Position numbers and translations under genes: made by a program. The notes beneath the pieces are model-generated. The model saw only the letters and a list, made by a program, of their open reading frames with translations. It was not told the origin of the DNA and made no database searches. Of a stretch of DNA of 63,906 nt, positions 10,662-63,906 are shown in pieces (the first letter of the stretch is position 1; the number at the start of each line of letters is the position of its first letter). The stretch is from Rhynchobatus australiae (taxonomy: Eukaryota), in assembly GCA_034780895.1 (NCBI GenBank), contig JAUZTB010000118.1, positions 55,567,942 through 55,631,847 of the forward strand, written 5' to 3'.

Positions 10662-11724
10662 TACTAGTTGAGAGTAAGCCTTAAAGTAGATTGAATTACG
10701 TTTATTGTAAACAACTTGAAGTATAATTCAATAAATTTAATCTAAGACTGACTATTCTAATGGGTGCAAACCATGTATTAAGACCATTTTTATTCCATTT
10801 TAACTGTAGATGGGTTAGTTTTGTACAAAAATACTTCAGAAATAGTTGTTAACAGCTAGAATGAAAAACTAGGTTATAAACACTAATTAGAAGTGACTGC
10901 AGTTGATCTGTATGGACGGTATGCAAGGCAAGTTTTTCAATGCACCTTGGTACATGTGACAATATCCCAATTCTAAGTAGGCCATTTGGTCCCTCAGGCC
11001 TGCAGTGCTATTTAAAAGTTCCTTTGTGAAAATCAACTTTGATTTAATGATATTTAAAAATGTGCTGGTTAGAGAACTCTATCTTAGTCTATTGTCTGTT
11101 AGGGAGAAAGGTCAGTAACTTGTAAGTCTTGATTGCTTGAGACTTGTGTCCGAAACTGCAGTGCCTTGTAGTGTTTGTAAATTTAGTTGCCTTGTATTTT
11201 ATGACATCTTCACCTCCTAATTATTACACCACTCATGATTTAATGCTGGAGTGTTATTACACAGACCCTCTGCTGGTTTAATTGTTGGTTAAAAATGCCT
11301 TTTTCATCTACGAGCATAGAGGGGGTTGTCTGTACCTGCAATTGCAATGTAACTGGACCCTGACTTGTGTGCTCATTCAGTGTAGACATGTTATTGAATT
11401 CCAGAAGGATCATTGATTCATGATTTAAGCAGTGTGAACAAGGTTTTACCTTAAATTCGCTACTTTCTCAATNNNNNNNNNNNNNNNNNNNNNNNNNNNN
11501 NNNNNNNNNTTCTCAATATTAATTCCAACTGGCTGGCTTTATCAGCCAGTTCACCAAGAGGCTTGGGGCCAAACTGTTTAAAAATTCTATCAATAATTTC
11601 TCTGCCACTTTAAAATCTTTTTGCATAAATGCTATTTCCTCACCACAGACCATTTGGACCATCAGGTATCTGCTGGCTTTCAGAAATCTCCCATTTTATT
11701 TCTGTGTAGCCTATCTGGGGGGTG

Positions 11725-12140
11725 GGGGGAAGAAGACACATCTCTGTCCTGGAGTGAAAGACCTCATCTTGAGAACAGATGCGGTGGAGATGGAGAAACT
11801 GAGAAAGAGAAAGATGTCTGTCCCAGGACTTCTGATATGTCCTCCATTTTCAGAAAAAGGGGCTTCCTTCCCTCTGGTTGATGGAGCCCTTGCCCAAATT
11901 GCCTCTATTTACCAAACTTCTGCTCTTACTCCACCTTTTCCCCAGACAACAGGGATAGAGTTTCCTTGGTCCTTTTCACCCCACCGGCCAACACATTCAG
12001 TACATCATTCTTCAACACTTCTGCCAGCCACATCTTCACCTACCCAGTGCTTTCTGCAGGGAATACTCTCTCTGGTTTCTCCTCCCTTCAAAACCTCTCC
12101 CCTAAATGCACCAATTCCTGCTGTAGCATGGTTCCAGAGG
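11725..12140 (+). mobile_element. Penelope-like element fragment with an inverted 5' segment
   Basis: The + strand from ~11820 reads RTSDMSSIFRKRGF / VDGALAQIASIYQTSALT / RDRVSLVL. The - strand of 11725-11818 reads SQFLHLHRICSQDEVFHSRT (Penelope RT C-terminal motif). Confidence 0.65.
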
Positions 12141-13395
12141 AAATGCTTTTATGCCTTTTTTGTTTATGGAGATTTTAATATGGCCTATATCATCCTGCTT
12201 TCCAGACATCCATGTGTTTGAAGGGCAGCTTCCCATTTGTAGCAGCTTTCATATAATTAAAATCTCTGTGGTTAATGCTATTGAATAAAAGTTAACACAA
12301 GGTACAAAATCCTTTGGGATAAGTGACAAAAGTTCCTTCCATGTTGGGTTTTAAGGAGCATCTTCAAAGAGGTAGAGATGTTTAAAAGAAATTTCAGACC
12401 TTGGCATAGAGTCAACTGACTAACAATGCAACTGCTAGTCAACTTGGCAGCAGTGCAATAAGATCACCAATTTTCAGAGGCTAAAATAATGAAGTGCTGA
12501 TTGAAATTTGTGGCACTTGAAGTTGGATGTGGTGAAAAGGTGGCTGTAAAGGGTGATGTGGTTAAATAGGAAATGACCTATCTCTATTCCCTGCATGTCT
12601 GCTTGTGCTTGAAAATCAGGTGGAAGGATTTCTCTGAAAATTAAATGCATTTGAGTTTTGTATTTTGGATACAATGATGATAAAGGACAGCTGTCAAATG
12701 TGACTGACAATTTTTGGTGAATATACATAGCTGATTAGCTCTCTGGATCTTCCCATTGTTCTATATCAGTGTGGAATATAGGACCCCTTATCTTAATCGC
12801 ACTGTTTTGTGACTTGGAGTTTGATGGACTGCTCAAGGGGTTGATTGGAGTCTATTTAACCCAGCCCTTTGTCTTGTTTGTTGTGTGGCCCATTGTGTTC
12901 TCTGTACATTGGCCTAGTATCCCAGAATCCTGTGTGCCTCCTGGTTGTCACAATTGCTCTGAACCAACCAGTATGGAATATGTTTATGTACTAGTTGAGC
13001 AACAAATCATTATCTGTATAAATACCATGGTTTGTTCCGGACTAATTGTGTTGAGTGGCTGACTTCTATGTAACACTACAGCTGCTTATCTAATAAAGAG
13101 CTGTCTTTGTTTGCACAGCTGCACCTTGTGACTTTAAAGCCAATCACTGCAAGTATCAATAAAAGACTTTAGTTCTCTACAATATTGACATTTAGGAAAG
13201 TAGTTTGAAGGTGGGTTCTTGTGTATGTCAGTGGTTCCAATTGTGTATCCTCCAACCTCTATTCCCAAACATATATGTGCTCTTAACAGAAAATCCTACC
13301 CTATTCCTAAGCACTATGAAAGCATGTCCCTGTTTGGCCCTGCATTAACTACAGTTGGTGAACATTAATTAACTAATCTTTGCCACCACAAAGGT

Positions 13396-16724: not shown

Positions 16725-17260
16725 GTAAGGTATAGGAGCAGAATTAGGCCATTCTGCCTATTTGAGTCTGCTTCCCCCATTCAATCACAGCTGATTTTTT
16801 TTTCCACAACAACCACCACATTCTTCCACCTTTCCCCTTACTAATCAAGAACCTATCTATCTCTGCCTTAAATACAACCAATGACTTGACCTCCACAATC
16901 CTCTGTGGCAATGAATTCCACAGATTCACCACCCTCTGGATGAAGAAATTTTTGCTCATCTCAGTTCTAAAGGGATCTGAGACTCTCAGTAATGGAAACA
17001 TCGTCCTCTTCATGTCCACTCTATCCAGGCCTTTCAGTATCTGGCAGGTTGCAATGAGATTCCCACCTCCTCCTTCCCCACGCATCGAGCCCCCCCCCCG
17101 CCCCAAAATCCTTCTGAATTTCATGGAGTACAGGCCCAGAGACATCAAATGCTCCTCATACATTAAAGCTTTAATTCCTGGGATCATTGTTGTGAACCTC
17201 TTCTGGACCCTCTCCAGGGCCAGCACATCATTCCTTGGATACGAGGTCCAAAATTACAAA
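16725..17260 (-). mobile_element. CR1 LINE 3' portion
   Basis: ORF 16744-17226 reads LALERVQKRFTTMIPG...SLGLYS...RVVNLWNSLPQ...FKAEIDRFL, followed by a CR1 3' UTR. Confidence 0.9.
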
Positions 17261-20200
17261 TAACTGATTTTTAGTTGCTACCTTAATTTGTTGTCTTGCA
17301 GCCCCACTGCTTTTTTCTAGAGCAGGATACTGATTTCCAGGTTCAATTGTGCCAGTCAGGAAATTTGACCAGGTACTTTGCAATGTGAACAGTCTTTCAG
17401 TCAATGCAAGTTGTGCATTAAATAGATACCTTATTGAAGTTGCTCATTGTGCAATGCTTTTAAGACGTTGCTGGGAAGGTTTGTTCTGAGGTGCATCTGT
17501 CAGAACAACCAGCTGCTTATAGTTCTGCCACCTTGCAGTGATTTTTTTAAAGGGTCCTTCTCTGAGAAAAGTATGGTTTATGGACATGAATTTAGTTACT
17601 TAACAAGTTCCTTCAGTATTTCTTTTGGCTTGCGACCCTTGGTTAACTCTGCTCTCACACTTACCTGCTATTTCTCATTATGCACTCCATAACAGCATGC
17701 AAAAGAGATTATGCAAGGCCATTTGGTGCTCAAGCTCTACTGAATTTAATTGATGGGCTTGCAACCAAAACTGTCACTAATGTGCCAAGTAATAGATTAA
17801 CGTGTCATTGTGGGCACAGAGGCATTTCTAGATGTACTTGCTCCCACACTGCTAACACATCCTCCCCAGTAAATTGGGAGAGACAAGATGCAACTCCAAT
17901 TGTAAACTAAATCATTATTTTTTTCTTTTTGGCTACTTCTAGCCTTGTTTGGGGTCTGACTGGGAATTGAGTAATATGAATAATGTGACATTCTTATCTG
18001 GTTTGTCTAAGACATGTTTTGCAAGTAAATCCTACACATTTTAATACTTATTTCAAGACTTGCAATATTAAGTCCTGTGCCTGAGGATATCCAGAGACCA
18101 CCTACATGGTTTGCACTGCAGACTATGCTAGAGACTTCAATAACGCCATATAGTTTCCCTCTATTGTTTTCCCTGAATCCTCTATACAAGAGATCCCAGG
18201 GTGGGGGGTGGAAGAAGAGGAGGGAAAATGGCATGTATGTGGNNNNNNNNNNNNNNNNNNNNNNNNNNNNNNNNNNNNNNNNNNNNNNNNNNNNNNNNNN
18301 NNNNNNNNNNNNNNNNNNNNNNNNNNNNNNNNNNNNNNNNNNTGGATTTTTCCACAACACAAAGCTGCATCATCTGTGAATGAATCGTAAAACAAGAGTT
18401 GGAGAAAAAAATGTGTTCATTTTACTTTTTTTTCCACTAAGTCTGAGTGAATTTTATTCCGTATCTCAAATGTTTGGTTAGTGATTTATGAATTCTGAAA
18501 GGACAAATTTCTGTTATCTGGATGGCCATAACACAAGGGTCACCTGTATAATAGGTTGACCTCCTATAGGTTCTGGTGGTTAATGTTTGACCAAATTGTG
18601 AGCTGAAAATGAAGTGTTTGTTTTAATCAAAACAATAAAAGCTTTGTGATCTTAAAATTACTTTTGTTGTTATTAAATGTGATTAGCCTGTCAACGTGCT
18701 TCAGATTAGTTTTCATTTACTCTAGCTGACTGATTAAAGGCTCTGGTCATGATGTAAAACAAAGGTCTGAGGCTTTTCCTACATGTATAAAATTCTGCAA
18801 CACAGTGAGAAAAATGTGATCACTAAATTTTGATGTTGCTGGAGAAATAGCTGCTTATCATAAAAAGCTGAGTCTTCGTAAATAGAGGATTGAGTTTTAA
18901 AGGATAGTTGTTGCATTTAGCAATTATGATTTCATATTAGTGTCAACTAGCTGTCACTAATTCAAAATGCTTGGATATTTTTGGAAATATTAAGCCAAAT
19001 GTTTGAAGAAATGAACTGGACCAAGAAAGATGTGAAATAGTTTCTGGTTGTGCTGCAGCCAATTTGGTAAATATTGCAATTTAATCTCAAGCTTCAAACT
19101 TCAGAGGGGGGGGGGGGGAATAAAGTTTAAGAAATGCTTAACATAAATTTATAGTTAGCAGTTGATGTTTAANNNNNNNNNNNNNNNNNNNNNNNNNNNN
19201 NNNNNNNNNNNNNNNNNNNNNNNNNNNNNNNNNNNNNNNNNNNNNNNNNNNNNNNNNNNNNNNNNNNNNNNNCTTACCATAAATTGATAGTTAGCAGTTG
19301 ATGTGTAAATTTCAGAAGATTGTGTCTTGGTTTAACCTGGGAAAGAGACTCTCTTTAATAAGTAATTTTCATTATTCACAAATTTTTCTGCCTTTTTAAG
19401 ACAATGCACTACTTTGCTACAAAGCTGATGTTTCATTCCTGAAGCATTTTAGGCTGAAAACGTGCTTATGTTTTTTATCAAGGGTTGGGGGGTGGGGAAG
19501 GGAAGCACAATTTTAGACTGTGTGACAGACAGGCCCTTGAAGATGACTTGTTTACAGTGGACAAGAATCTCATTTGACTTCTCAATGTTATGCTGCTTCA
19601 GTTTTCTAGAGGATTGCAGTATTGTTATTGCTTTGCTGGTTGCCTGCAACTATTTAAAGGGGCTTCAGAGATGCAATTTCATATTGTATTATGGTCTTGT
19701 TTTCTTAGCTATGCACACTTGTTACATTGCAACAATACAAACCGAACAATCTGCAGTTTTGCTGTAGATAAGTGTTCATCTGTCACTGATGCACAGTGCT
19801 CTCTTGTACAACTTTAGAATAGTATTATTAAATCTTGAATAGCTATTGGACCAGTTTAATTAAGCTTCTGATTAATCATGTGCAGTTTGCATTGCTTATT
19901 AGTTAACACATTGAACCGTAAGCCTGCTATCCAGCCCTGATTTTGAAGAATTCAAAGTGTTTTTAAAAAAATACTTGGTGCACTAGAAATTTTCTTGATT
20001 CAGTAAATTCACCTATCACCTGAAATTTCCCATCCCTTGAAATGGAGTTGCTGATCCTATAGCAAATCTTACCTGGTGCAGATTTGATGGCCAGCATTCC
20101 TAGCATAACTGAGGAGATTGCAGAAAGTTGGTGCTCTGCTGTCTAGTATCAGGTCCAATGATGAGTGTAGACAATAACTGTGGCAAGAGCTTCCTTGAGG

Positions 20201-28530: not shown

Positions 28531-29511
28531 TTATTTAGGGCAAATGAACATGCAATAGAATGCATGTTGCATTCAAATTTTAAACAAAATGTTTCAGATT
28601 AGCATTGATACCTTTTTATTTATATATATATATATATATAATTTATTTATATTANNNNNNNNNNNNNNNNNNNNNNNNNNNNNNNNNNNNNNNNNNNNNN
28701 NNNNNNNNNNNNNNNNNNNNNNNNNNNNNNNNNNNNNNNNNNNNNNNNNNNNNNGTAATAGGCAATGAAAATTGCACTCTGTTCTCAATTCCTGAATAAC
28801 AGCTTTGGGGAAAAGGGTGCTTTCAGTTAAGGGCCATAGACTTGCCTCTTCCAATATCTCGGTTTCAAACCTCATTTTGTCCTTTTTTGCTTTCCTTCTC
28901 TCTGGGAAAGAGGCCTTTTTAAAGACATTTATTTTTTTTCAGTCACTTGCTATCAATGACCTCAATCTGATTTTTTTTTTTCCCCCTCCCCTCTTGGTAT
29001 AGCTTTGAAAAATCAACTGTTCATTAGTTTCTGTTCACTTTCTGAACTTTTACAACAATGGACCCTTATGTTTTCGGTTTGACATAAAGTGAGCTGTGAT
29101 GTACCACAAACTGAATATGCTTGGTGTCTACAAAATCTGATGAATTCACATTATTTAAAAATACAAGAGAACCAATCCCAGAATCTTAATTTTCTAAGAA
29201 AAATTAGTCAGTAATAGCAAACNNNNNNNNNNCTCCTGGAACCAGGCAGGATTACTATTAAAGGTATTTTCTTTAACCTCCATTCTATGAATGTGGATAT
29301 TTTCTTATTGTTCAGTGGTCATCACATCATTCACAAATGTCCAGTAGTATAGCCCAATTTTTCATGACTTTAGCATATGGTAACAAGAATATTTTGGAAC
29401 CTTTACTGAAAACCCAAATTGTGTAGACATGATAATCCACTACATAAAATTGGCCTTATTGAAAAGTAATTGTTGCATTCATTGCATTAAGTTACTATGT
29501 TGGCATTTCAG

Positions 29512-29631
29512 GTGAAATATTTTCAGAAAACTTTGGGCCAGATTTTCGTGAAGGAGAAGATTTCTTTACAGTCTTCGCTATTTTCTTCCCTGCTGCTACT
29601 GGTATTCTTGCTGGGGCAAACATCTCTGGTG
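29512..29631 (+). CDS. SLC12A2: SLC12A2 exon 8 equivalent (TM6); 3' end (~8 nt, 'DLA') lost in the N gap
   Basis: catttcag|GT GAA ATA TTT...; encodes (G)[39 protein letters not shown], then runs into Ns at 29632. Confidence 0.95.
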
Positions 29632-30799
29632 NNNNNNNNNNNNNNNNNNNNNNNNNNNNNNNNNNNNNNNNNNNNNNNNNNNNNNNNNNNNNNNNNNNNN
29701 NNNNNNNNNNNNNNNNNNNNNNNNNNNNNNNNNNNNNNNNNNNNNNNNNNNNNNNNNNNNNNNNNNNNNNNNNNNNNNNNNNNNNNNNNNNNNNNNNNNN
29801 NAATGTCGTTAATTATTGTTATATTGCTGCTAAAATGTAATGGATTTTTCATGACATTTCACCTTGTTGTGCGGGGTTTTTTAAATTGTATTATCTTGCA
29901 TGAAATTGGAGTAGAACTAATGGATCTGTAATTTGCCCATTCTTTTCACTTTTGGCTTCTATCTCTGCCACAATACTGAAAGTCCATGTGGGATTTCATT
30001 TGCAGTTTCTAACATGACTGATTGCAGTGAACTGTACTGCTTCACTCTGACAACAGTTCTATCTCATCATCTCCCTTGATCCTACTGCTGCCTCTGATTT
30101 GTCACACTGCTTGACTGACTCCAGTGGCAGAGATTTTCCCTCTAAGTATTGTAAAGACCAAAGTCATCGTCTCTGGTTGAGGTTGTATGGCATATTTTAC
30201 TATCTTTTGTTTTATTTTGCCTCTAGTTTAGCTGCTGGCACTAAATTCTCCCCAGTCTAAAGAATTTCTGTTTCCACCTATTGCTGTCTCAGCTCATCCA
30301 CATAACTTCAATCTATGCATTCATTACTACAATTTCAACCAGTCCAACACTTCTCCAGCCTCTCCTACCATGTTAGGATTCAGTTGGTCCAAGTTAGTAC
30401 TGCCTTTATCCTAATGTTTACACTGTTACTTGACAGCCCACTGGCTTTTGATCCAGGAATCTTTCCATTTTTAACTGCAGGTACAAAATCCGAAATAATT
30501 AAAATTTTTGGTCTATGATCCTAAAACAAGGAATAGTTAGACCATGAGCATGCTCTAAGTTGCAGGGGAGGCCAAGAGAAAATAGACGGCCAAGATACAG
30601 ATGGTGTCGGTGCAAACTAAGGGGATGGTGAAGGCTTGTGCTGCTAAAACATTTGGAGATGATGTAAATAGAGAGGGATTAATGCAAATAGTAGTAAGTG
30701 AGGAGCATATGGGAGTGTGATGAGATAGGGTGGTGCGGGGGCAGTGATTGGGGGAGAAAGTGTTGGAACGGAGAGAGAACACCAGTTTCTAGAAATCTG

Positions 30800-34303: not shown

Positions 34304-35775
34304 CTTTGGAATCTTGCCCATTTTTATTTAAATGGAATGTCAGTCATTGAGTTCTTCCTGTGAACCTGATTTTTAGTGAAGCAGTTGGCTTGGGTTATCC
34401 AGCTATAATTTTTATTTCAATACTGCAAACTCAATTGTTGTTGTTTCCAATAATTATTCATCCAAAATTTCTACCTCCTTATTTTGATTTATTAACATGA
34501 AATTGGTTGGTTTCATACTAATCATATAATGGGTAGGTTGATTATTTTCAAGTTGGAGTAACTTCATTTGCTTTCTCTTAACATTCTTGATGCCAATGTG
34601 CACAGAACGTTTTGTTTACTGATTTTTCTTTAAACTTGATTATTAGTAGTTTTGTAGTGAACAATATTTTAAAAGCTTGCCTTTTTATGTTGTGCAAACT
34701 AGGAAGTGGTTTAGTCAACATAGTACTTTTAAGTGAATTGGCTGAAGTGAAATATGGACAAATATATATCACTCTGACCTATTCCCAGGACCTTATGTTA
34801 TCTACTCATTAGGGAATAAAAATATCCACCATTGGGAGAAAAAAAACAAGTATTCTGATAGGATTGATGTCAATTAATTCCTACTGGAACTCTACACATT
34901 TCTTAATATTAGGGCTTTGTAAATGATTAGTGTATTGAAACAGTGAACCTTGACTAATAAACAATTTAATAACCACCAAAGCTATATGAAGATGAACTAG
35001 AATTTGCAAGTGAAATTTCTGTATAGGAAATACCATCTTGTAAAATAACAATTTTTTTTAAAAAAAAGATGCATGCCATTCTAGAACACTCCAGTCCTGT
35101 ATCCTGTTATTTAGTTGGTGATCTCACTGGGTGGATGTCAGACCGTGTGATCTGAAGCATCTTCTGTATGTAGTGTATTTATTCATTATTATTTATGAAG
35201 CTGAGAGGTTTGAAATGTTATTGCTATAGCAGGCCTGTTTTGGGAATGCTGTAAAATTAATTTATGATGCAAACTCCTTCATCTTGAAATACTCAGAATG
35301 GTGCTTGTGTTAAGTGAAACAGCAAATCTTCAAAAAGAAATCAAAATCAGTGTCTGTTTGGGCAATTAAAATGGGATTTAATTGTTTAACTTTCAGCATT
35401 TAGTGTTGAAGNNNNNNNNNNNNNNNNNNNNNNNNNNNNNNNNNNNNNNNNNNNNNNNNNNNNNNNNNNNNNNNNNNNNNNNNNNNNNNNNNNNNNNNNN
35501 NNNNNNNNNNNNNNNNNNNNNNNNNNNNNNNNNNNNNNNNNNNNNNNNNNNNNNNNNNNNNNNNNNNNNNNNNNNNNNNNNNNNNNNNNNNNNNNNNNNN
35601 NNNGACATTGCATGGATGATGCTTGGCGAACTTTTGAAATTATTCTTTGAAATCTTGCCCATTTTTATTCAAATGGATTGTCAGTCATTGAGTTCTTTCT
35701 GTGAACCTGATTTTTAATGAAGCAGTTGGTTTGGGTTATCCAACTACAATTTTTGTTTCAATACTACAAACTCAA
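34304..35775 (+). repeat. Diverged local direct repeat: 131-nt copies at 34304-34434 and 35645-35775
   Basis: Ungapped alignment with 10 mismatches by my count, 9 of them transitions. Confidence 0.9.
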
Positions 35776-40229: not shown

Positions 40230-40650
40230 TAAATACATGCAGTACAAAAATTTGCCCTTCATCCCATGACGTCAGTGCTGATCTTTTTGCCTATCTATGT
40301 TGATCCTATTTGCCCATATTATTTTCTGTGCCCTTTGTAAGTGTTTTAATGCCCCATAAACATAGTAACTATATGGGCAATAGTAACTATTCCTCCATCA
40401 CCACCTCTGGCAGTGCATTCCAGATATAAACTTTTTTTTAAAAGGCCCATTCCCTTCAAATACCCTTAAAATTCTGTCCTCTCTCCTTAAACCTATGCCC
40501 TCTTGTTTTTGGTACTTGTATCTTGGGGAAAATGATTTTGACTATCTATCTATTGCACCTCAATCTTGCATACTTCTTTCTTGTTGCCCCTACACTCTGG
40601 GGTAAATAGGCTCAGCCAATCCAATCTTTTCCCATAATTAAGATTTCAAT
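40230..40650 (-). mobile_element. CR1 3' fragment
   Basis: 'ccatcaccacctctggcagtgcattccagat' (reverse of WNALP.) and 'cttaaacctatgccctcttgtttt' (reverse of KTRGHRFK). Confidence 0.65.
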
Positions 40651-40699
40651 TTTTCCAACCTTTTTGGTTTCCATTGTTTTCAAGGCATACACAACAAAT

Positions 40700-41050
40700 T
40701 ATATTTTGTATTGCATTTTTTTTGCTTCCCATAACATCTTGCACTTCACAAATGTAATTGAGCAAGATTTGTACCAAGCCATATGTGGAAATAATGGAAA
40801 TAACTGGCCTGAGGCTAGATCGAAGGGAACATCTTAAACAACACAGGCAGAGAAGCTTGAGGTGGGAATTCCAGAACTTGGAATTGAAGGCTTTAAATTC
40901 AGGAAGATTGAAACCAGAATTGCAGGAGCATGTATATCTGAGGGATCTGAAGCTGAAGGAAATTGGAAGAGGAAAATGAGGCCATGGAGGGTTTTGGGGG
41001 AATGCAAGAAGAACAAACTTTAAAATTTTAGGATTGCTTAACCCAGAATC
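40700..41050 (-). mobile_element. L2-like LINE 3' remnant
   Basis: 'gaacatcttaaa...gggaattccagaactt' motif; related remnants at ~12340-12410 (-) and ~63600-63812 (+). Confidence 0.45.
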
Positions 41051-44000
41051 AAAGTATCTTCTGTGCTGGAGTGAATATGAGTAAGTGTGAATTAGGGCAT
41101 AGTTACTGCAAATGTTTCAATTCCAGATAGTTCATCCTCTGCTCAGTTTTTAAAAAATTGTTTTTGATTTCATTCCTGTATATAAATAATTGTTGTAAGT
41201 ATTATCTACTCAACTCTTGCTAATTAGATGCAATGTAATAGCACACTATCCCATCTGTTCATGCTTGCATCTTTTTACTAACAGGTACAGTTTTCTGATT
41301 CTGTTAAGAAGCATGTCTCCAGTTGGAGAACTGAGCATTCCAAGAATCGTTTGCAAAGTGGCTTTCCTTCCCATTTTTTTAAATTGTTGGATCAAAGATC
41401 TTGGGTCTTGTGATACACTTGTGTCAGCTGTGATCTCTTCATTGACCTTAATGCCATGATTCTAAAGCAAAAATAAACCACCAGCCTCCAAGTAGTTATT
41501 AGCTACTTTTGTATAATAAATGCTGGTTGTGGTTGGCCCCTTCTTGTGTAGTTCTCTTCAGTATACCATAACTCTCTTATTTAGCAGAGGTAACAAAGTG
41601 CAGTATGAGGAAATTGTCCCTACTAACTTTGAAACAAGACAGGAAAGGCACTGGCTGAGAACCCCATTTTTCACTTGAATTTCTGAAGACGACTTCTTCT
41701 CAATATTGGCTTTCTCCTTGGTGTGCTTTGAGGTTTGATTCAAGCATTAACTTGTCTGTTATCAGATTGTAATTCCTGCAGCATTATTGGTTTCTATGTC
41801 AGTCAATATATTCAGTTGGAATTGCTTCATTTTAAGCTGATGATTCTAATTTGCTGAAGATAGCATATGTATCCAGAATTTGAAAATGCTTTTTTTTTGA
41901 TTAAAAGTGAGTTGTTCTGCCTCGCAACAGCTGCGATATGTATAAATATCTGTGCTCTAACATACCTATACTCTGCACCTGCTCATGTCTTTGAATGCCT
42001 TGGCTGTATTTTACAGCAATCCACATTTGCCTCTATTGCTTAAAAGAACCAATTAACATTTGCTCTAGTGCAGTAACAGTTACTGTGGATGGTTTTTGTT
42101 AACCAAGGTAGTACTACTTTCAACAGTTGCTTCTAATGTGTTCAACTTCAAAGGCAATATTTCTGGATAAGCACATTTTTCAATTGTTCGTGGAATCAAA
42201 TGCAGCTGGAAAACAATGTTACAGGATGACGTTGGAAATTTTAATGTTGGTTTGAAAAGATAAAGATTTATGCTTTTTACAGATAGCAAATTACATGAGC
42301 TAAATCTTTGTTCACTTGAACATATCATCACTGAATTTAAAGGTACAAATTGATGTGGTGGTGATTAGAAAAAGGGAGAGTTGAATTCTGACGACTTTGC
42401 CTTGATGTTCCCATATTTGTTCAAAATTTTTTATCAATGCTTTTGGGCATGATGGCAGATTGCCTCACTTGAAACTGTGGTCTTTTGTGTGTACCAAAAA
42501 GGTGGTTTGGCCTTATTTGACAGATGGAGTTGTCTAGAACATGCCTTGAGCAAGTGGAACAAGCAGTCAACTGAGATTGTGCCGTAAGGGCCAGAGTGGT
42601 AGCAGTGCTAGTCTCTTAATGTTTTATTGTTGTGACATTGTCAGTTATTAACTCTGGGAGATTTGATTCTAGGATTTGCTTCATCCTGATCACCCTTTCT
42701 CTTTCACCAAGTTTTATCAAGTAGACATTTCCTAGAAGGTTTGATTGTCAGATAAAGATATTTATTTGAGCTTTGACACATGCACTGTCATTGAGGATCT
42801 GAATGTTTCATTTAAAATGTCTAGTTTTGATGTTTTAGAGAAGAATTCGTATGGCCATGAGCAAAGAAGGGCAAGAGATGACGAAGCTAAATAACTAAAG
42901 CAAGAAAATAAAGTTCAGTACTGTATTTCAGAAAACCAGAGTCAAGATTGAAAAACATGAATTCACAAAACATTCTACATGAAACCAGAGTCAAAAGTAC
43001 AAATAGATTTGGAGGGATATGATGAGAGATATATGCCTTGTGTTTGAACAAGACTGGGGACCTGTAAACATTTTTCACAAAAGACAAGTAGATGATTCTC
43101 TGTGAAAGATTCTGTCACTGCACTCAGATATTTGGATTTGACGATATCCAAGGGAGTTGGCTTGAGGCATTCAGGTGCATTGAGTTGAGAAGCAGAAAGG
43201 AATATGGTTTAGTTCTTTGAGAAATTTCCAGTAAGGGCACAGTGTACCATGCATGTTTGCCAAAATGACACAGTTAACAAACTACACTGGAATTATTTTT
43301 GGGCTTATAAAGACTAAGGTTATTTTCAAGTTATTGAAGGGAAATGTTTTTTCATTTCTTCAATGTTGGGTGAGAAACTGGAAGGATATCGTTTCGTACA
43401 TATTTGGGATGCATTGCCACAGGAAGGGCTTGAGGCAGAAAATTAAGCTGAGTGAGATGATGCATCAAATCTTGGGCTTCATTTGGTAGGGAAAGAGCTG
43501 ACACAAACATAGACTAAACCCCCATTCACTGATATTGTGCTGCATAAATCACAAAGGAAATCCAAATATTATGAGAATAGATTAAACTGATTTCCTTTAT
43601 CCTTCTTATTAATCATGCGACTGAGTTATGCTATGCAACTTTCATTTGTCACTGAAGCATTCCAGTTGTTTATGTGATCATAGCCTTTGGTTTCACTTGG
43701 TGTGCTGATAATCCTTTGGAATCTCACTGAGAATGGTAAAGCATATTTGTTGGCACTGAATGATAAGTAGTATCAGTTTTGCATGCCACAACGTTAATGC
43801 ATTTATTTATCAAGTCTGAGGTTTCTTTTTGAAATGAAGGAGTTTCCTGCAGTTCATTTGTTCAAGCCATCACAAGGTTGAGATGTACTATAACAGCAAA
43901 GGGAAGAAATTGTTTCGGGGAAGCTTCAAGATTATTCTGACCTTTTTACTTAGTTCTGCTAACTGAGAATTAGCCCCTCAACAGACACTGAATTAAGCCA

Positions 44001-55035: not shown

Positions 55036-55678
55036 TTAGTTGTATTTCCTTGCCCCAATATTTGTGATCTTGAAAATCCGTAGCTTTTTAGGTGTATTTT
55101 TCCCCAGCAACTTTGGAGATTCATCAGAATGCAGATACTGAATTGTATTCCAATCTGCTACCTTTTTTTTATATTAACATTTTGCTCTCTTCAGTATGTT
55201 CTTTCTTCCGCCCAACCTCCTTGGTTTTGGGTTATTTTCCACTACCTTAGCCACCACCATTTCCCTTTCCAGTGTTTTATTTTTCCCATTACTTGCCAGA
55301 TTCATTGGCCTGATTTATATTTGCATTCTTTTAGAAAGACACCATTTCAATTGAAGAAACAGTCCTCAGAAGCTCCCGTAATTTTGACCTCCAAACTTTT
55401 TCTTAACCTTGCTCTATTAAGAATTCTATATCTGGGTAGACAAATACTTTGCAATCAGCCTTTGTTTATAACAGTCCAGGAAATTGTTATTTATCTACTG
55501 GCATTGTTAATGCTACATTACAGATATACTGGTTTAAAAATTTGTCTTGTGTAACTGATGTTGCATTGAGTAAATGTATAAATGCTTAAATTTTGTGCAA
55601 ATCTTGTTGCTGTTTTGACACATCTGTAGTGCTTTTTGAATGGGCAAAAGGAGTAACAAATGTTTTATTTTCCTTCAG

Positions 55679-56697: not shown

Positions 56698-56859
<162 letters not shown>

Positions 56860-57570: not shown

Positions 57571-58065
57571 GTCGGCCAGTGTGTTCTAATCCAATTTTCC
57601 AGAAATCATCGATTATCTTCTTGGGCAGTGAATTCCAAATTATTACCACTTTTTAAAATAAAAAGTTCTCTTATTTACCACTACTCAAGTCAAAATGAGT
57701 GAATCGGCCTTGAAATTGTGAGGTCAAATCCTGCTGAGGCAAGAATTCATTTAAGAGGGTCAGTTTTTCAATAGTATTTTGACTATTTTTTTCTACTTGT
57801 CATTAAACCAGGTAGGGTCGATTATTCAGAAAGGGAAAATGAGTTCCACTGAAGAATCAATTTTGTAACTTTGTAGGAGTCTGCACTTGTGAGTTTGTAC
57901 ATGGGTGAACGTGTACAAAGATGATAATTACAGTATTTGTAAGAGAGGAAATGGCAATTCTTTATTGCAGCTCTATTTGATGTAAAATAACATTGAGAGT
58001 TTTATAATGCCTTACCTCTCATCTCTATCATATTGAACATCATTAATCTCCTTACTTCCACACAG

Positions 58066-58226
58066 CCTTCAGTAAACGACACAAAGCAGCTTCAAGTTCA
58101 TACCCTCCATTGCTGAATCCACAGACTCCAAAACCAAGTTCAGTGGTGCACCAGTTGCCTTCATATACAGATACTCCTCCTTCAGCTGTGCACAACCAGC
58201 CTGCAACGTCCAACACTTCTACACCA
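58066..58226 (+). other. Candidate cryptic or captured exon, 161 nt, phase 1/0, Pro/Ser/Thr-rich
   Basis: Branch-like 'cattaat', pyrimidine tract 'ctccttacttccacacag|', an open frame FSKRHK...TSNTSTP, and donor 'cca|gtaagt'. Confidence 0.5.
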
Positions 58227-58819
58227 GTAAGTTATATCAAAGTTTCTTGATTTGCAGTGCATTGACAGAGGATGGGATTACAGTTATAATGNNNNNNNNN
58301 NNNNNNNNNNNNNNNNNNNNNNNNNNNNNNNNNNNNNNNNNNNNNNNNNNNNNNNNNNNNNNNNNNNNNNNNNNNNNNNNNNNNNNNNNNNGAATTCCAA
58401 ATTATTACCACTTTTTAAAATAAAAAGTTCTCTTATTTTCTTTAATTTTTAAAAATATTTTCATTCTTTTCCTCTCCTATCGTTCCTCCCATCCAAAGCA
58501 TTAAATCAATGTTCTATATCCTTGTACAGCTAGATCAGGGAAATAGCTCCAAGGTCGATAGACAACTTTTAACTTGTTTTAAGGTTAACATAGAGTTGAC
58601 AAGTCCCTGTAAAATGGTGAGTGACTTAGTTTAATAAATGTTTTAACTTTTGTGGTTTATGTTGCTCAGTTTATGATGTTTGATCATTTGTACAGCCTGC
58701 AGTTATTCTTAATAGATTGTAAGCCACCATATTAAGCAGAGCCTTATTTTACTTTGCACCACATAAAATCCCATAATGTAGCTGTGATTAACAACTTGAT
58801 TACTGTGTTTTGTACTTAG

Positions 58820-58975
58820 GCTGGCGACCTGCATTTAGATACTATAACATGTGGATTTCATTGATCGGTGCTGCCTTGTGCTGTGGAGTAATGTTTGTCA
58901 TCAATTGGTGGGCAGCACTATTAACAAACGTCATTGTCCTTGCCTTGTATATCTACGTTACCTACAAGAAACCTG
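58820..58975 (+). CDS. SLC12A2: SLC12A2 exon 14 equivalent (TM11-12), 156 nt, phase 1/1
   Basis: gtacttag|GC TGG CGA...AAA CCT G|gtaagg; encodes (G)[51 protein letters not shown]. Confidence 0.97.
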
Positions 58976-60824
58976 GTAAGGCTAATGCAAAGTGTGGACA
59001 AAGTTTTCAATTTTCTTGTGTACTTTTTTTTACAGTAATTTGCTTTTATAGAGCATATTTAGAAAAGATTCCAACAGTAGGAAACAAACTTCCTGAATGA
59101 ATGTGAGCAGGAAAGCCATTTACTGACACTGTCAGTACCAATGTCTGTTCTATAATGCTATATGACCCAAGCTGGAGCAGCACTATAGATGTGAGTTTGG
59201 AACAGGAAAGGGAAAACTGTCATAGAGCATTACTCTTAAACCTTAGCCATTACCTATTAACAAAATGCATATTCACTTTGCCAGCAGGAGGGATTATCTG
59301 TAGTTGAGGAGCCCATCTAGCCATTAACTTAGCTGCCAGTTAGTGTGGTCTAGATGGGAGGGGTTGGCTGGTTTGGGAGAAGGAGCTTGTGTTCATTTGG
59401 GGGAGCTGGGAGGCAATAGGCTGTAATTGCTGGTTGGGGATGGGGGGATGATAGTGGTTGGATAATTGTGTGCAGGGAGGGAGCAGACGAAACCTCTAAT
59501 TTGGTTCCAATACCAATCTGTACCACCTCTAGCAGATTCCCTCAACTCTCTGATATACATAGAAAGGTAATGCAGTTGTTGAAACGAAAATGTTTGGAAT
59601 GACATAGGCATTGCATGCCAATTTCCATGTTTGGGTTCCTCCATGTGTTATGTAGCAGAGATGCAATGAAATCCAGAACACAGATTATTGACTTTGCAAT
59701 CAGTGAGGCTTGACACTGACTTTTGCATTTTATTTTTCATAAAAATTGAATTGCTCATAGAGAATAAAAACATGGCACCACACAATCTAATTTGTAGGCG
59801 AGTCTTTCAGAAAGGATAAAGCTTTTTAAATGTTGGGTTGCAGGTTTTTGCTAATGCATCTGTGTTTTTCTTTAAAAAAAAGTTTAAATACATAGAACAG
59901 ATCTTTCAACTTGATTGAAATGNNNNNNNNNNNNNNNNNNNNNNNNNNNNNNNNNNNNNNNNNNTCTACATTTTTTCCCAGAGTGTTTTTAAAGATTATT
60001 AAAAAGAAATGGTACTTCAGATAAAATATCTTCTATGTTATTATTTTCTTTGCCAGCTGAATGATAGTTTCTGGCTTCTACAAGTCCACCACACATCTAA
60101 CTGGATATTACTGTTTAAAAATGTATTTCGCTTCTCCTGTAGGGCGGTCTCTTTGGCGAGAACCTGCTGCCTGAAATTTCAAGGTCCACAAATAAAATGA
60201 AAGGCTAACAAAATTTTTGTTTTGATTTAATTTCTGGATAATTGATTTTTTTAATTTAAATTTGGATAACGCTAATAAACTTAGTGGGGCATTCGCTTTC
60301 AGTGTAGATGATACTGTGTGATTTCCATTCTTTAGGTATATTTCTTTCAGAAATCTGATACTGAAGTGTGGTCATTTTGTTATTGTCTGCAGATGGTTGT
60401 CATCTGTATAATGCATTGCCATTGTTCATATTTGATTTAAATTTCACAACTAATCTTTTAGTGGCTGTTTTATTTGCCAAGTTCATGCTGCAACTTCTAT
60501 CCAAGTTAGACTCTTATTAATATTTCGAATTCCTTTTATTTCTATTTTGTTGCTTGTAAGCTTGATAAATGATTTACAGTATTGTCAGATGACTGCTCTT
60601 GGTAACTAGGTAACAGAAGATGGAAAAACTGGGATCTATACATTATTACTTAAATTCCCAAATTTCTGTTAGAAACACTGGCTCAACCATGTGTTTCTTG
60701 CAAAGTGTATTGGACTCCCAAGGAGTTGTTTCTAAACCATTGACTCCGGTCTACTATTAACGTATTCCACATTCTCCACATACTGCAACACCTAATTCCA
60801 GATGGTCAGTGTGGGGGAAAATAT

Positions 60825-61210
60825 TAAAACAAAATGCTAGAAGTAGTCAGAAGGTCAGGCAACATCTGCAGAGAGATAAACAAAATTAAAGTTTGGACTA
60901 CTGACATCAGAACTAGTAAAATTAGAAAAGAAATCTGGGTTTGGGGAGAGTATGGAAAACCAGGGTCAAAAAAAAGTCTGATGGTCGTTCAGCCTCTTCT
61001 GATCCACAATCTAATTTTTGCTGCAGGTTGAAAGAAGATCATAAAGTGTGTGTGGGTGAGGTTTAAATTGAAGATGAGTGAAACCTGAGAGCAATAAGAT
61101 GGAAGAGGAAGATTAAACAATGCTGGAAATGAGATAACAGGCTGGAATGGCTGAATATCTGAAATCATTGAATTCTATGTTGAATTCATAAGGCTGCATT
61201 GTGACTGTTC
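60825..61210 (-). mobile_element. Penelope-like tail remnant
   Basis: 'aaatgctagaagtagtcagaaggtcaggcaacatctgcagagaga' and 'tatctgaaatcattgaattctatgttga', like the 30800-30960 copy. Confidence 0.55.
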
Positions 61211-63906
61211 CCCAGATTGGTTCCTTGATATACTATTCCAGTAAACTCAGCTTCATGGAATACTTGAAATCAAATAGATGGGAAAGGTTTTTGCAAGGAT
61301 ACCTCTGGAATTTTGCTGTAATTCTGGTGGCCTATGTCACAATCAAAAACTCACCCCTTAACTAAACAAATCTTCTGACTGCAGACTTCAGATTACAGTG
61401 TTGGCAGTTGATGTGGTGCCGTAATGATGGGCTGTATATTTCTCAAATGTTGGTTGATGAATCTATTCCATGTTGTTTTGATGCAAAGAGGCAATTTTGG
61501 TAAAGTGAAAGTATATGCAAGTGTGGGCAGAGAATGGAAAAAGAGCTTTGTTCTCAACGGAAGCGATTTGTTAGAATGTTAACAGATGGTAATATCATTT
61601 GGTTGCCATGGACCAATTTGTGATATTGCAACTTCACTTTAGGGAGGTCCAGTGTATTTATCAGCAATTGTTAAAACATTTACACAGTAGTTAGGTATTA
61701 GCAGATACGAAGTTGTAATATTTTGGGGGTATGGAGTGAAGTGTGGCACTGCACAAGTTGAACACATTTTAAAATATTGTGATTCTATAATGCAAGTTGT
61801 TTTAACTAAAACAAGATTAATCAGTGATTTCTTAACGTTTCATCACATGCACATTATCAAATTTCATCTGTTGTGTGAACTTAGTGAGCCTGTGGTGGGG
61901 GGGGGGGGGGGGGGGAAATTACTTGAAATTGGACCTGTTCTTTAATTTTAAATAAGATGTTCTGAATATGCATTTATCTTTGTACTTAAGAAGTATGTCG
62001 TCAAATATTGTAGAAATTGTAAAACAAGTAGAATTATAAACTTTCTGGGTTACGACACTTTCTTTTCATAATGACATGTTGATATTACTGGCAATGTGTG
62101 CAACGTTCTTCTGAAAATCTTCTCTTGTTTCTTTCATTTATTTTGGTCACTGTCAAACATATATTCAGACAGAAACCAGAGTGCTTTATTGTTTTTTTTT
62201 GCTCACTTGGTAAACTGTGCAAATGTCATCTTGTGTTTTTTTTTCCCTGCAATCCACTGAACAATTATTCANNNNNNNNNNNNNNNNNNNNNNNNNNNNN
62301 NNNNNNNNNNNNNNNNNNNNNNNNNNNNNNNNNNNNNNNNNNNNNNNNNNNNNNNNNNNNNNNNNNNNNNNTATTCATCAACCAGAGAAACTGAAATCAT
62401 TCTGGGGAAAATGTGCATGCCACTATTTGCTCTTTTGCCTATTGCTTAAAAGGAAAGATCCATTACAGTTGTATGTTGTGGGAATCTTGTTTTTTTTAAG
62501 TGTTGGGTCAGGTAGCATTTCTCTTTAAGCTGTAATTTTTTTTCAACTTGGTCTTGGACTGAAATAAGAAATCACTTCTTGGTTTCCATGTAGAACTTTT
62601 TGGTTTAGTGTAGTAAAAGTAATCCTTTGCTGGATTTGGATGTGTGCCTCTGAAGCTGTGACATTAACTGGATGTCTGTTTCCCATTCTTTGCAACAGAA
62701 CCTGGAATTTGTAATGCATGTCAAATGACTGGCGGTACACAAGACGCTTAATCTAAAAGATATTGATACCTATAGGGCAGCTGAAATTAGAAACTCATTT
62801 CTCCAAATATTTGATTTGACTAATATTAGAGCACAATTATAATGGATTGACTGTTCAACACCATGCCTAAAGATTTGTTTTTGAGATTGCTTTGAGTCAT
62901 TGGGTTGTTTGCTACTTTTTCATTGTTTTAGTAAATTTATTTTGGATGAAGTGAAGACAGCAGACCTACAGAGGCAGTGTAAATTTACATTCTCTGTATT
63001 ACTGTACCTTGCTGAAATCCTGTTAAGATCCTTCCAAGTTTTTAATTCTTTCATCTCTTTTGTTCTTTCTCTCCCCTCACTTAGCTTGTCCATTTGTATC
63101 CTGTTGCCCCCTTTTTGCTTGCTTTCCTGCCCCAGCAATATAATTGTAAACAATCAGTATAGAGGTTGGGAGCATTCAGAAGATACTGAAAATTACTATT
63201 CAAACGGCATGACATTGCCTGGGTGAAATGTATTGGGTAAGGTGGAATTTATTACAGAACATCTGTTTGTCCAACATCCATTATTGGAAGAGTAGAAATT
63301 TCTAACAACAAAATATTCAAAGTCTTTGGTTACTGTAGTTTTTAGCTGCATTTACTAATTTCATCCCTCACCCAAGCAACTGCTTGAAGCTGAACATTGG
63401 TTTTGTATTTAACCTTGAAGTGAGTAATCGGCCACATTTAGGAAACTGCCTATTCCCATCTCTTGGCATTGCCCAATTCTCCCTGTCTTAGCACATCTGC
63501 TGCTGAATCTCTATCATCCCTATCATGCCTTTTGTTCTAAACTCGACAATTCAAAAGTATTCTAGGCTTTCCCTGCTTCTTACCCTCCATAAAATTGAAA
63601 GCATCTTAAATACTGCCCAAGTCCTAACACTCCTCCTATTTCCCCATCTTTGCAACTATCTCTGTTGCTACAAAGACTTTAAGCTCTCTACATCTTCTGG
63701 TATCTGTCTCTTTTAAGATGCTCCTTAAAGCCAACATTTCTTTGTCACCATGCCAAATGTTTTGTTCATCCTCAGGACATTTTGCAACTTTAAATGCCAT
63801 ATAAATGCAAACTCTACTGGTTAGGATGAGATGTTCTGTTAAATGGACAGTATGTAGGCATGTAACAAATGGATGTTTCATTATGGCTTCTGACAGGAAC
63901 TAATTT

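Follow-up and report, generated by a model that had tools for sequence, protein, structure and literature searches.

The NKCC1 locus and the segment in intron 13

The window, by which we mean the whole stretch of DNA analysed here (64 kb), carries part of the gene encoding NKCC1 (SLC12A2), the transporter behind rectal-gland salt secretion. A tblastn search of the window with ray NKCC1 proteins recovered 13 exon blocks in the expected order, which correspond to residues 226-729 of a skate protein. Exon and helix numbers are carried over from the human gene and are assumed to apply here. The encoded protein shares 92-95% identity with shark and ray NKCC1, clusters with batoids (92/98) outside the skate pair and the stingray pair, and is batoid-like at six of the seven diagnostic columns. 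Exon 8 (29511-29631) abuts a 170-N gap at 29632, and its final bases and donor site are absent from the assembly. No NKCC1 exon after exon 14 was detected by tblastn in the last 4.9 kb of the window (58976-63906), for which a long intron or a gap may be the cause. Several stop-free frames of 156-232 codons lie within NKCC1 introns (11523-12218, 16766-17260 and 55084-55551 on the forward strand, 16747-17253 and 40649-41116 on the reverse strand); none of them gave a Pfam match above cut-off and they are probably repeat remnants. In addition, a 131-nt stretch occurs twice at 92% identity (34304-34434 and 35645-35775), 1.3 kb apart, with the second copy starting 41 nt past a 192-N gap. This pair represents either a local duplication or two alleles placed in series.

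The features between exons 13 and 14 are listed in Table 1. As assembled, intron 13 measures 1968 nt; in its uninterrupted form, it would be about 1206 nt long.

Table 1. Features of NKCC1 intron 13 and of the exons that border it (window positions).
Feature	Position	Strand	Remarks
NKCC1 (SLC12A2) exon 13	56750..56851	+	102 nt, phase-1 end; from tblastn with ray NKCC1 proteins and splice sites
Decayed interspersed-repeat remnant, NKCC1 intron 13	57606..57676	+	last 47 nt are the duplicated stretch
47-nt stretch, copy 1	57630..57676	+	ends at the branch between NKCC1 intron and foreign segment
Foreign segment of genomic KANSL1-like DNA, probably a contig tail	57677..58291	+	615 nt; the exon is preceded by 389 nt and followed by 65 nt, putatively KANSL1-like introns
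Coding exon, native to a PEHE-domain gene (KANSL1-like)	58066..58226	+	161 nt; begins in phase 1 and ends in phase 0; residues ~950-1002 of P0002
Scaffold gap, 100 N	58292..58391	.	probably stands in for overlapping contigs (negative distance)
47-nt stretch, copy 2	58392..58438	+	opening bases of the next contig; continues into uninterrupted NKCC1 intron 13
NKCC1 exon 14	58820..58975	+	156 nt

The original prediction described 57677-58291 as inserted sequence that resembles none of the repeats in the window and contains a well-formed exon in frame with exon 13. It was taken to be an exon captured or transduced from another gene, or a poison exon; a filled and an empty allele, or a mis-join, were offered as the source of the insert. 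Our analysis agrees with the description itself. Searched against the window at E<1, the segment matched nothing else, except for one weak self-hit (E 0.32). A branch-point-like TTAAT is present at 58043, followed by a tract with a pyrimidine fraction of 0.76, a CAG directly in front of 58066, 161 nt of exon and GTAAGT directly behind 58226. One of the three frames of the exon is stop-free, and it is the same frame in which the phase-1 end of exon 13 would continue when the two are joined in silico. In such a transcript, exon 14 would be read out of frame and a stop would be reached at 58862. Nonsense-mediated decay (NMD) acts as a rule on stops that lie more than 50-55 nt ahead of a downstream junction. 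The stop at 58862 precedes the next junction, where exon 14 ends, by 111 nt, so that in silico it is placed as the stop of a poison exon would be.

The exon belongs to a KANSL1-like gene

A search with the 53-aa peptide encoded by the exon returned eight matches among 15 candidates, and all eight are annotated as KAT8 regulatory NSL complex subunit 1-like proteins of sharks and rays. We refer to them as KANSL1-like, a database name that covers either KANSL1 or KANSL1L orthologues. The peptide is identical at 53/53 positions to the KANSL1-like protein of the sawfish Pristis pectinata (P0002) and at 40-50/53 positions to those of seven other sharks and rays. Thus, the protein search that had been suggested for finding a donor locus identified a coding homolog. 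Both exon boundaries are native to this gene. At the acceptor, the isoforms P0003 and P0005 lack the 48 aa found upstream and read SSA-T-FSKRHK, compared to VHL-A-FSKRHK in P0002, and this switch between A and T is what a codon N/CC split at the acceptor at 58066 would give. At the donor site, identity stops at 58226, where all eight KANSL1-like proteins enter an RRRR stretch that is missing from the window. Judged from these alignments, the 161-nt exon is a native KANSL1-like coding exon and not a product of chance. Since its splice sites are native, the 389 nt upstream and the 65 nt downstream of it would be KANSL1-like introns. The PEHE domain (PF15275) of P0002 spans residues 1038-1159, downstream of this exon, and the exon peptide itself has no Pfam match. 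It is the only KANSL1-like exon in the window; a second one was not found. The 48-aa exon upstream is skipped in the listed isoforms of Amblyraja and Narcine and kept in the other six of the eight proteins P0002-P0009.

These results support the part of the original prediction that assigned the segment to another gene. However, the quality of the splice sites and the open frame, which had been taken as signs of a captured exon or a poison exon, are properties of a working KANSL1-like exon, and capture is not needed to explain them. Because they are native to the exon, they are no evidence for either role. Likewise, the agreement in phase with NKCC1 exon 13 is a coincidence that exon phase frequencies lead one to expect in roughly one case out of three.

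In each of the three sharks and skates listed for both genes, KANSL1-like is placed on another chromosome-length record than NKCC1. The lengths of the two records are 212,062,168 vs 208,972,130 in Heterodontus (212.1 vs 209.0 Mb), 131,315,132 vs 121,814,736 in Amblyraja (131.3 vs 121.8 Mb) and 141,859,166 vs 142,684,034 in Heptranchias (141.9 vs 142.7 Mb). Therefore, the donor gene is likely located on another chromosome, as judged from these relatives. As the host NKCC1 is of batoid type and the best match of the exon is also a batoid, both pieces fit a single ray. Contamination from a distant taxon was considered and is not needed to account for the segment; DNA from another close ray could still be its source.

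We compared the site with NKCC-family proteins. Of 907 relatives of exon 14, the best 120 were used, none of them labelled Pristis. Exon 13 is joined directly to exon 14 in 100 of the 120 proteins listed, and the remaining 20 are fragments of 91-194 aa that do not include the exon-13 side. Direct joining was found in all 17 NKCC1 proteins from 11 cartilaginous fishes among those listed. Three motifs of the 53-aa peptide occurred in none of the 120 proteins. In the opposite direction, no NKCC1 fusion protein was present among the 15 candidates of the peptide search (96-2000 aa), and this search yielded no candidates of 29-95 aa. NMD isoforms are seldom annotated, and absence from proteins weighs less against a poison exon. 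In titles and abstract openings of the papers listed, we found none on a join between NKCC1 and KANSL1 or on such an exon in elasmobranch NKCC1.

The 47-nt repeat and the scaffold gap

The exact recurrence of 47 nt on both sides of the segment, on which the idea of an insertion had been built, was verified. It cannot be extended in either direction, and the second copy opens on the first base past the 100-N gap. The first copy forms the end of a repeat remnant that shows 68-74% identity to two other copies in the window (40391-40443 and 16898-16932). The name CR1 was given to it in the original prediction; our analysis supports the designation as a decayed interspersed repeat. It had further been stated that this old repeat resumes only from the second copy of the 47-mer. 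The position of the 47-mer within a decayed repeat stands, whereas the exclusive continuation on the right is weakly supported. Compared to nine repeat copies of the window, the sequence following the second copy exceeds shuffles when 25 nt are considered (z 2.9, p 0.015); over these 25 nt, the side of the insert reaches a z of 0.2. With 40 or 60 nt, the right-hand sequence does not exceed the shuffles. In contrast, a profile built from the nine copies extends weakly into the insert and not into the right contig, and two further tests with single repeat copies scored both sides alike.

These continuations bear on the possibility that an intronic KANSL1-like insertion, or a shared repeat, ends at the 47-mer and that the assembler overran from there into the native KANSL1-like locus, so that the exon would again not be part of NKCC1. 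The 47-mer is a branch with two exits of which the native one is not provable by sequence alone, and the weak extension of the repeat profile into the tail speaks for this scenario. However, the 25-nt continuation of the right contig fits the repeat better, and a second novel junction would be required, one lying at 58438/58439 and the other at a site further upstream. We therefore give it a very slim chance.

The assembly around the segment is fragmented. The window contains 24 gaps, ten of them of exactly 100 N, and the median contig measures 1.9 kb. At five of the nine other 100-N gaps the flanking sequences overlap, four times exactly (6, 7, 16 and 6 nt) and once over 36 nt with three mismatches; an overlap was seen at only one of the 14 remaining gaps (8 nt). 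For random contig ends, an exact overlap of at least 6 nt has a probability of 0.002 per gap. Therefore, 100 N in this assembly is commonly a sign that the distance between two contigs is zero or negative and not that DNA is missing. Overlaps too small for a merger point to thin coverage. The 36-nt overlap lies at 19137-19172 and 19273-19308, across a 100-N gap, and its mismatches suggest contig ends resting on single reads (with read errors) or different alleles. A length of 47 nt as the k or k-1 of the assembler was considered and dropped, as the overlaps at other gaps range from 6 to 36 nt.

Thus, a further overlap between contigs, with a foreign tail behind the first copy, is the best interpretation of the 47-nt repeat. 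The foreign segment forms the end of its contig, and the neighbouring contig restarts 47 nt before the branch; both are marks of an assembly chimera, and the gap between them is of the corresponding type. Furthermore, the right contig carries an uninterrupted NKCC1 intron 13, so the empty form exists in the data. The gap behind 58291 is unique among the 24 in having a flank that is repeated within the contig next to it. For a second foreign exon, 140 of the 252 stop-free frames (at least 58 aa) were scanned with Pfam; the scan gave four matches, all below the curated cut-offs, and has low power, given that the KANSL1-like exon itself has no Pfam match. Consequently, chimeric tails are not demonstrably common in the window. 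From the contig sizes in the window, the probability of a tail this short (615 nt) is about 0.24.

Taken together, the sequence data make it probable that the 615-nt segment is a chimeric contig tail created by a mis-join and that this animal has no such exon in its NKCC1; as a feature of NKCC1, the exon is most likely not real. Of the two origins left open by the original prediction, the assembly context favours the mis-join over a polymorphic insertion, and no NKCC1 protein of a relative shows the exon. The left contig would have been extended at a thinly covered spot into the KANSL1-like locus, either via a library fragment that was itself chimeric or through a short word common to both loci, and this extension would have run on for 615 nt. 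The true continuation would have overlapped the left contig by 47 nt only, too short for a merger, and read pairs may then have scaffolded it behind the tail with the default spacer of 100 N. A chimeric fragment at the junction is something we infer. Artefactual chimeric reads that join distant loci via short complementary stretches are described for FFPE human samples (PMC8458033), and true junctions are marked by split reads piled up at one coordinate (PMC13651185). If the mis-join holds, automated gene prediction would yield a spurious truncated NKCC1 at this locus, and foreign exons beside 100-N gaps of this assembly should not be trusted at face value.

Insertion scenarios and comparison with known systems

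The main alternative to a mis-join is a real and recent event. Double-strand-break repair might have placed unspliced KANSL1-like DNA, 615 nt or more of it, into NKCC1 intron 13 as a heterozygous templated insertion (dispersed duplication), and the assembly would then have written the left part of the filled allele followed by the empty allele. Filled and empty forms are both present, and in a short-read assembly a heterozygous insertion would look no different. The short tail slightly favours a bounded insert, and the low-powered search for further foreign exons, which revealed none, points in the same direction. Moreover, the exon is undecayed (53/53), in sense orientation and has intact splice sites, and host and donor are compatible with one batoid. 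The 8-nt word TTACCACT straddles the foreign junction (57675-57682) and recurs 35 nt upstream inside the 47-mer (57642-57649). End-joining can leave this pattern. Compared to random right flanks, the recurrence has a p of about 0.016, with the word being one among several patterns that could be sought, and it could be a mark of templated end-joining or due to chance. However, a single junction is visible, the left one; the end of the tail and the next contig have at most 6 nt in common, and no return from the tail to NKCC1 was found. Coverage of the assembly is thin, and overlaps are common at its 100-N gaps. In humans, 25-30 templated insertions per person are reported by PMC5110952, which also documents a class 2 that has no target-site duplication (TSD) or poly(A). 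From this human rate, which may not hold for rays, about 0.0006 insertions are expected per window of 64 kb, and therefore the prior is low. Overall, we regard a real templated insertion as unlikely.

That such a repair event also gave rise to a segregating, spliced allele, with transcripts that are destroyed or that encode an NKCC1 without its last two membrane helices, appears quite improbable. If the insertion were real and the exon spliced in, a frameshift in exon 14, the stop at 58862, NMD and thus a null allele would be predicted. NKCC1 would then have a naturally occurring loss-of-function allele, and a cartilaginous fish would provide a fresh inter-chromosomal exon capture without the marks of retrotransposition. 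Should the spliced allele be true, the capture of an exon would have been observed at its very beginning, in the transporter chiefly responsible for salt secretion in elasmobranchs. The kind of event itself is known from human templated insertions.

Alternatively, a retrotransposon could have transduced the exon, with the 47 nt as target-site duplication, and the insertion could have become fixed to serve as a regulated poison exon or to produce a truncated NKCC1. The direct repeat that brackets the segment is in line with this, as are the sense orientation of the exon and its phase relative to exon 13. However, the second copy of the 47-mer opens exactly at the contig start, as do the overlaps at other gaps. 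The segment contains no AATAAA, and its ends, of which the right one may lie within the 100-N gap, show no run of A or T of at least 6 nt; the empty site at the branch reads TATTT/TCTT instead of TTTT/A. The intron flanks are retained, and therefore the segment is not a processed transcript. In addition, neither the 15 peptide-search candidates nor the 17 NKCC1 proteins of cartilaginous fishes include a fusion, and the peptide shows no amino-acid change compared to a member of the donor family. The chances of a transduced exon are thus slimmer than those of any other scenario considered here.

Several known systems resemble the arrangement in intron 13 in part. With LINE-mediated transduction and class 1 templated insertions (TSIP) it shares a direct repeat flanking foreign sequence, but poly(A), AATAAA and a TTTT/A site are missing here and the repeat coincides with a contig start. 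Class 2 TSIP (PMC5110952) are similar in comprising sequence of another chromosome over hundreds of nt, with filled and empty forms and without TSD or poly(A), and a distant donor locus is indicated here by three of three relatives; however, calls of this class require both junctions and validation, and at this site there is one junction, drawn from sequence data. The KANSL1-like genes (PEHE domain, PF15275) of sharks and rays contain the same exon with the same boundaries and phases and 53/53 residues, whereas the window contains only one exon with partial flanks, within the scaffold of another gene. The chimeric reads described in PMC8458033 differ in the type of sample, FFPE human material, and the chimeric fragment proposed here is deduced from the anatomy of the locus. 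The segment fits the mis-join favoured above: like a chimeric contig end followed by a negative gap in a short-read draft assembly, it is a foreign tail at a placeholder gap. The contig behind this gap begins anew ahead of the branch, and the flanks of other 100-N gaps overlap as well.
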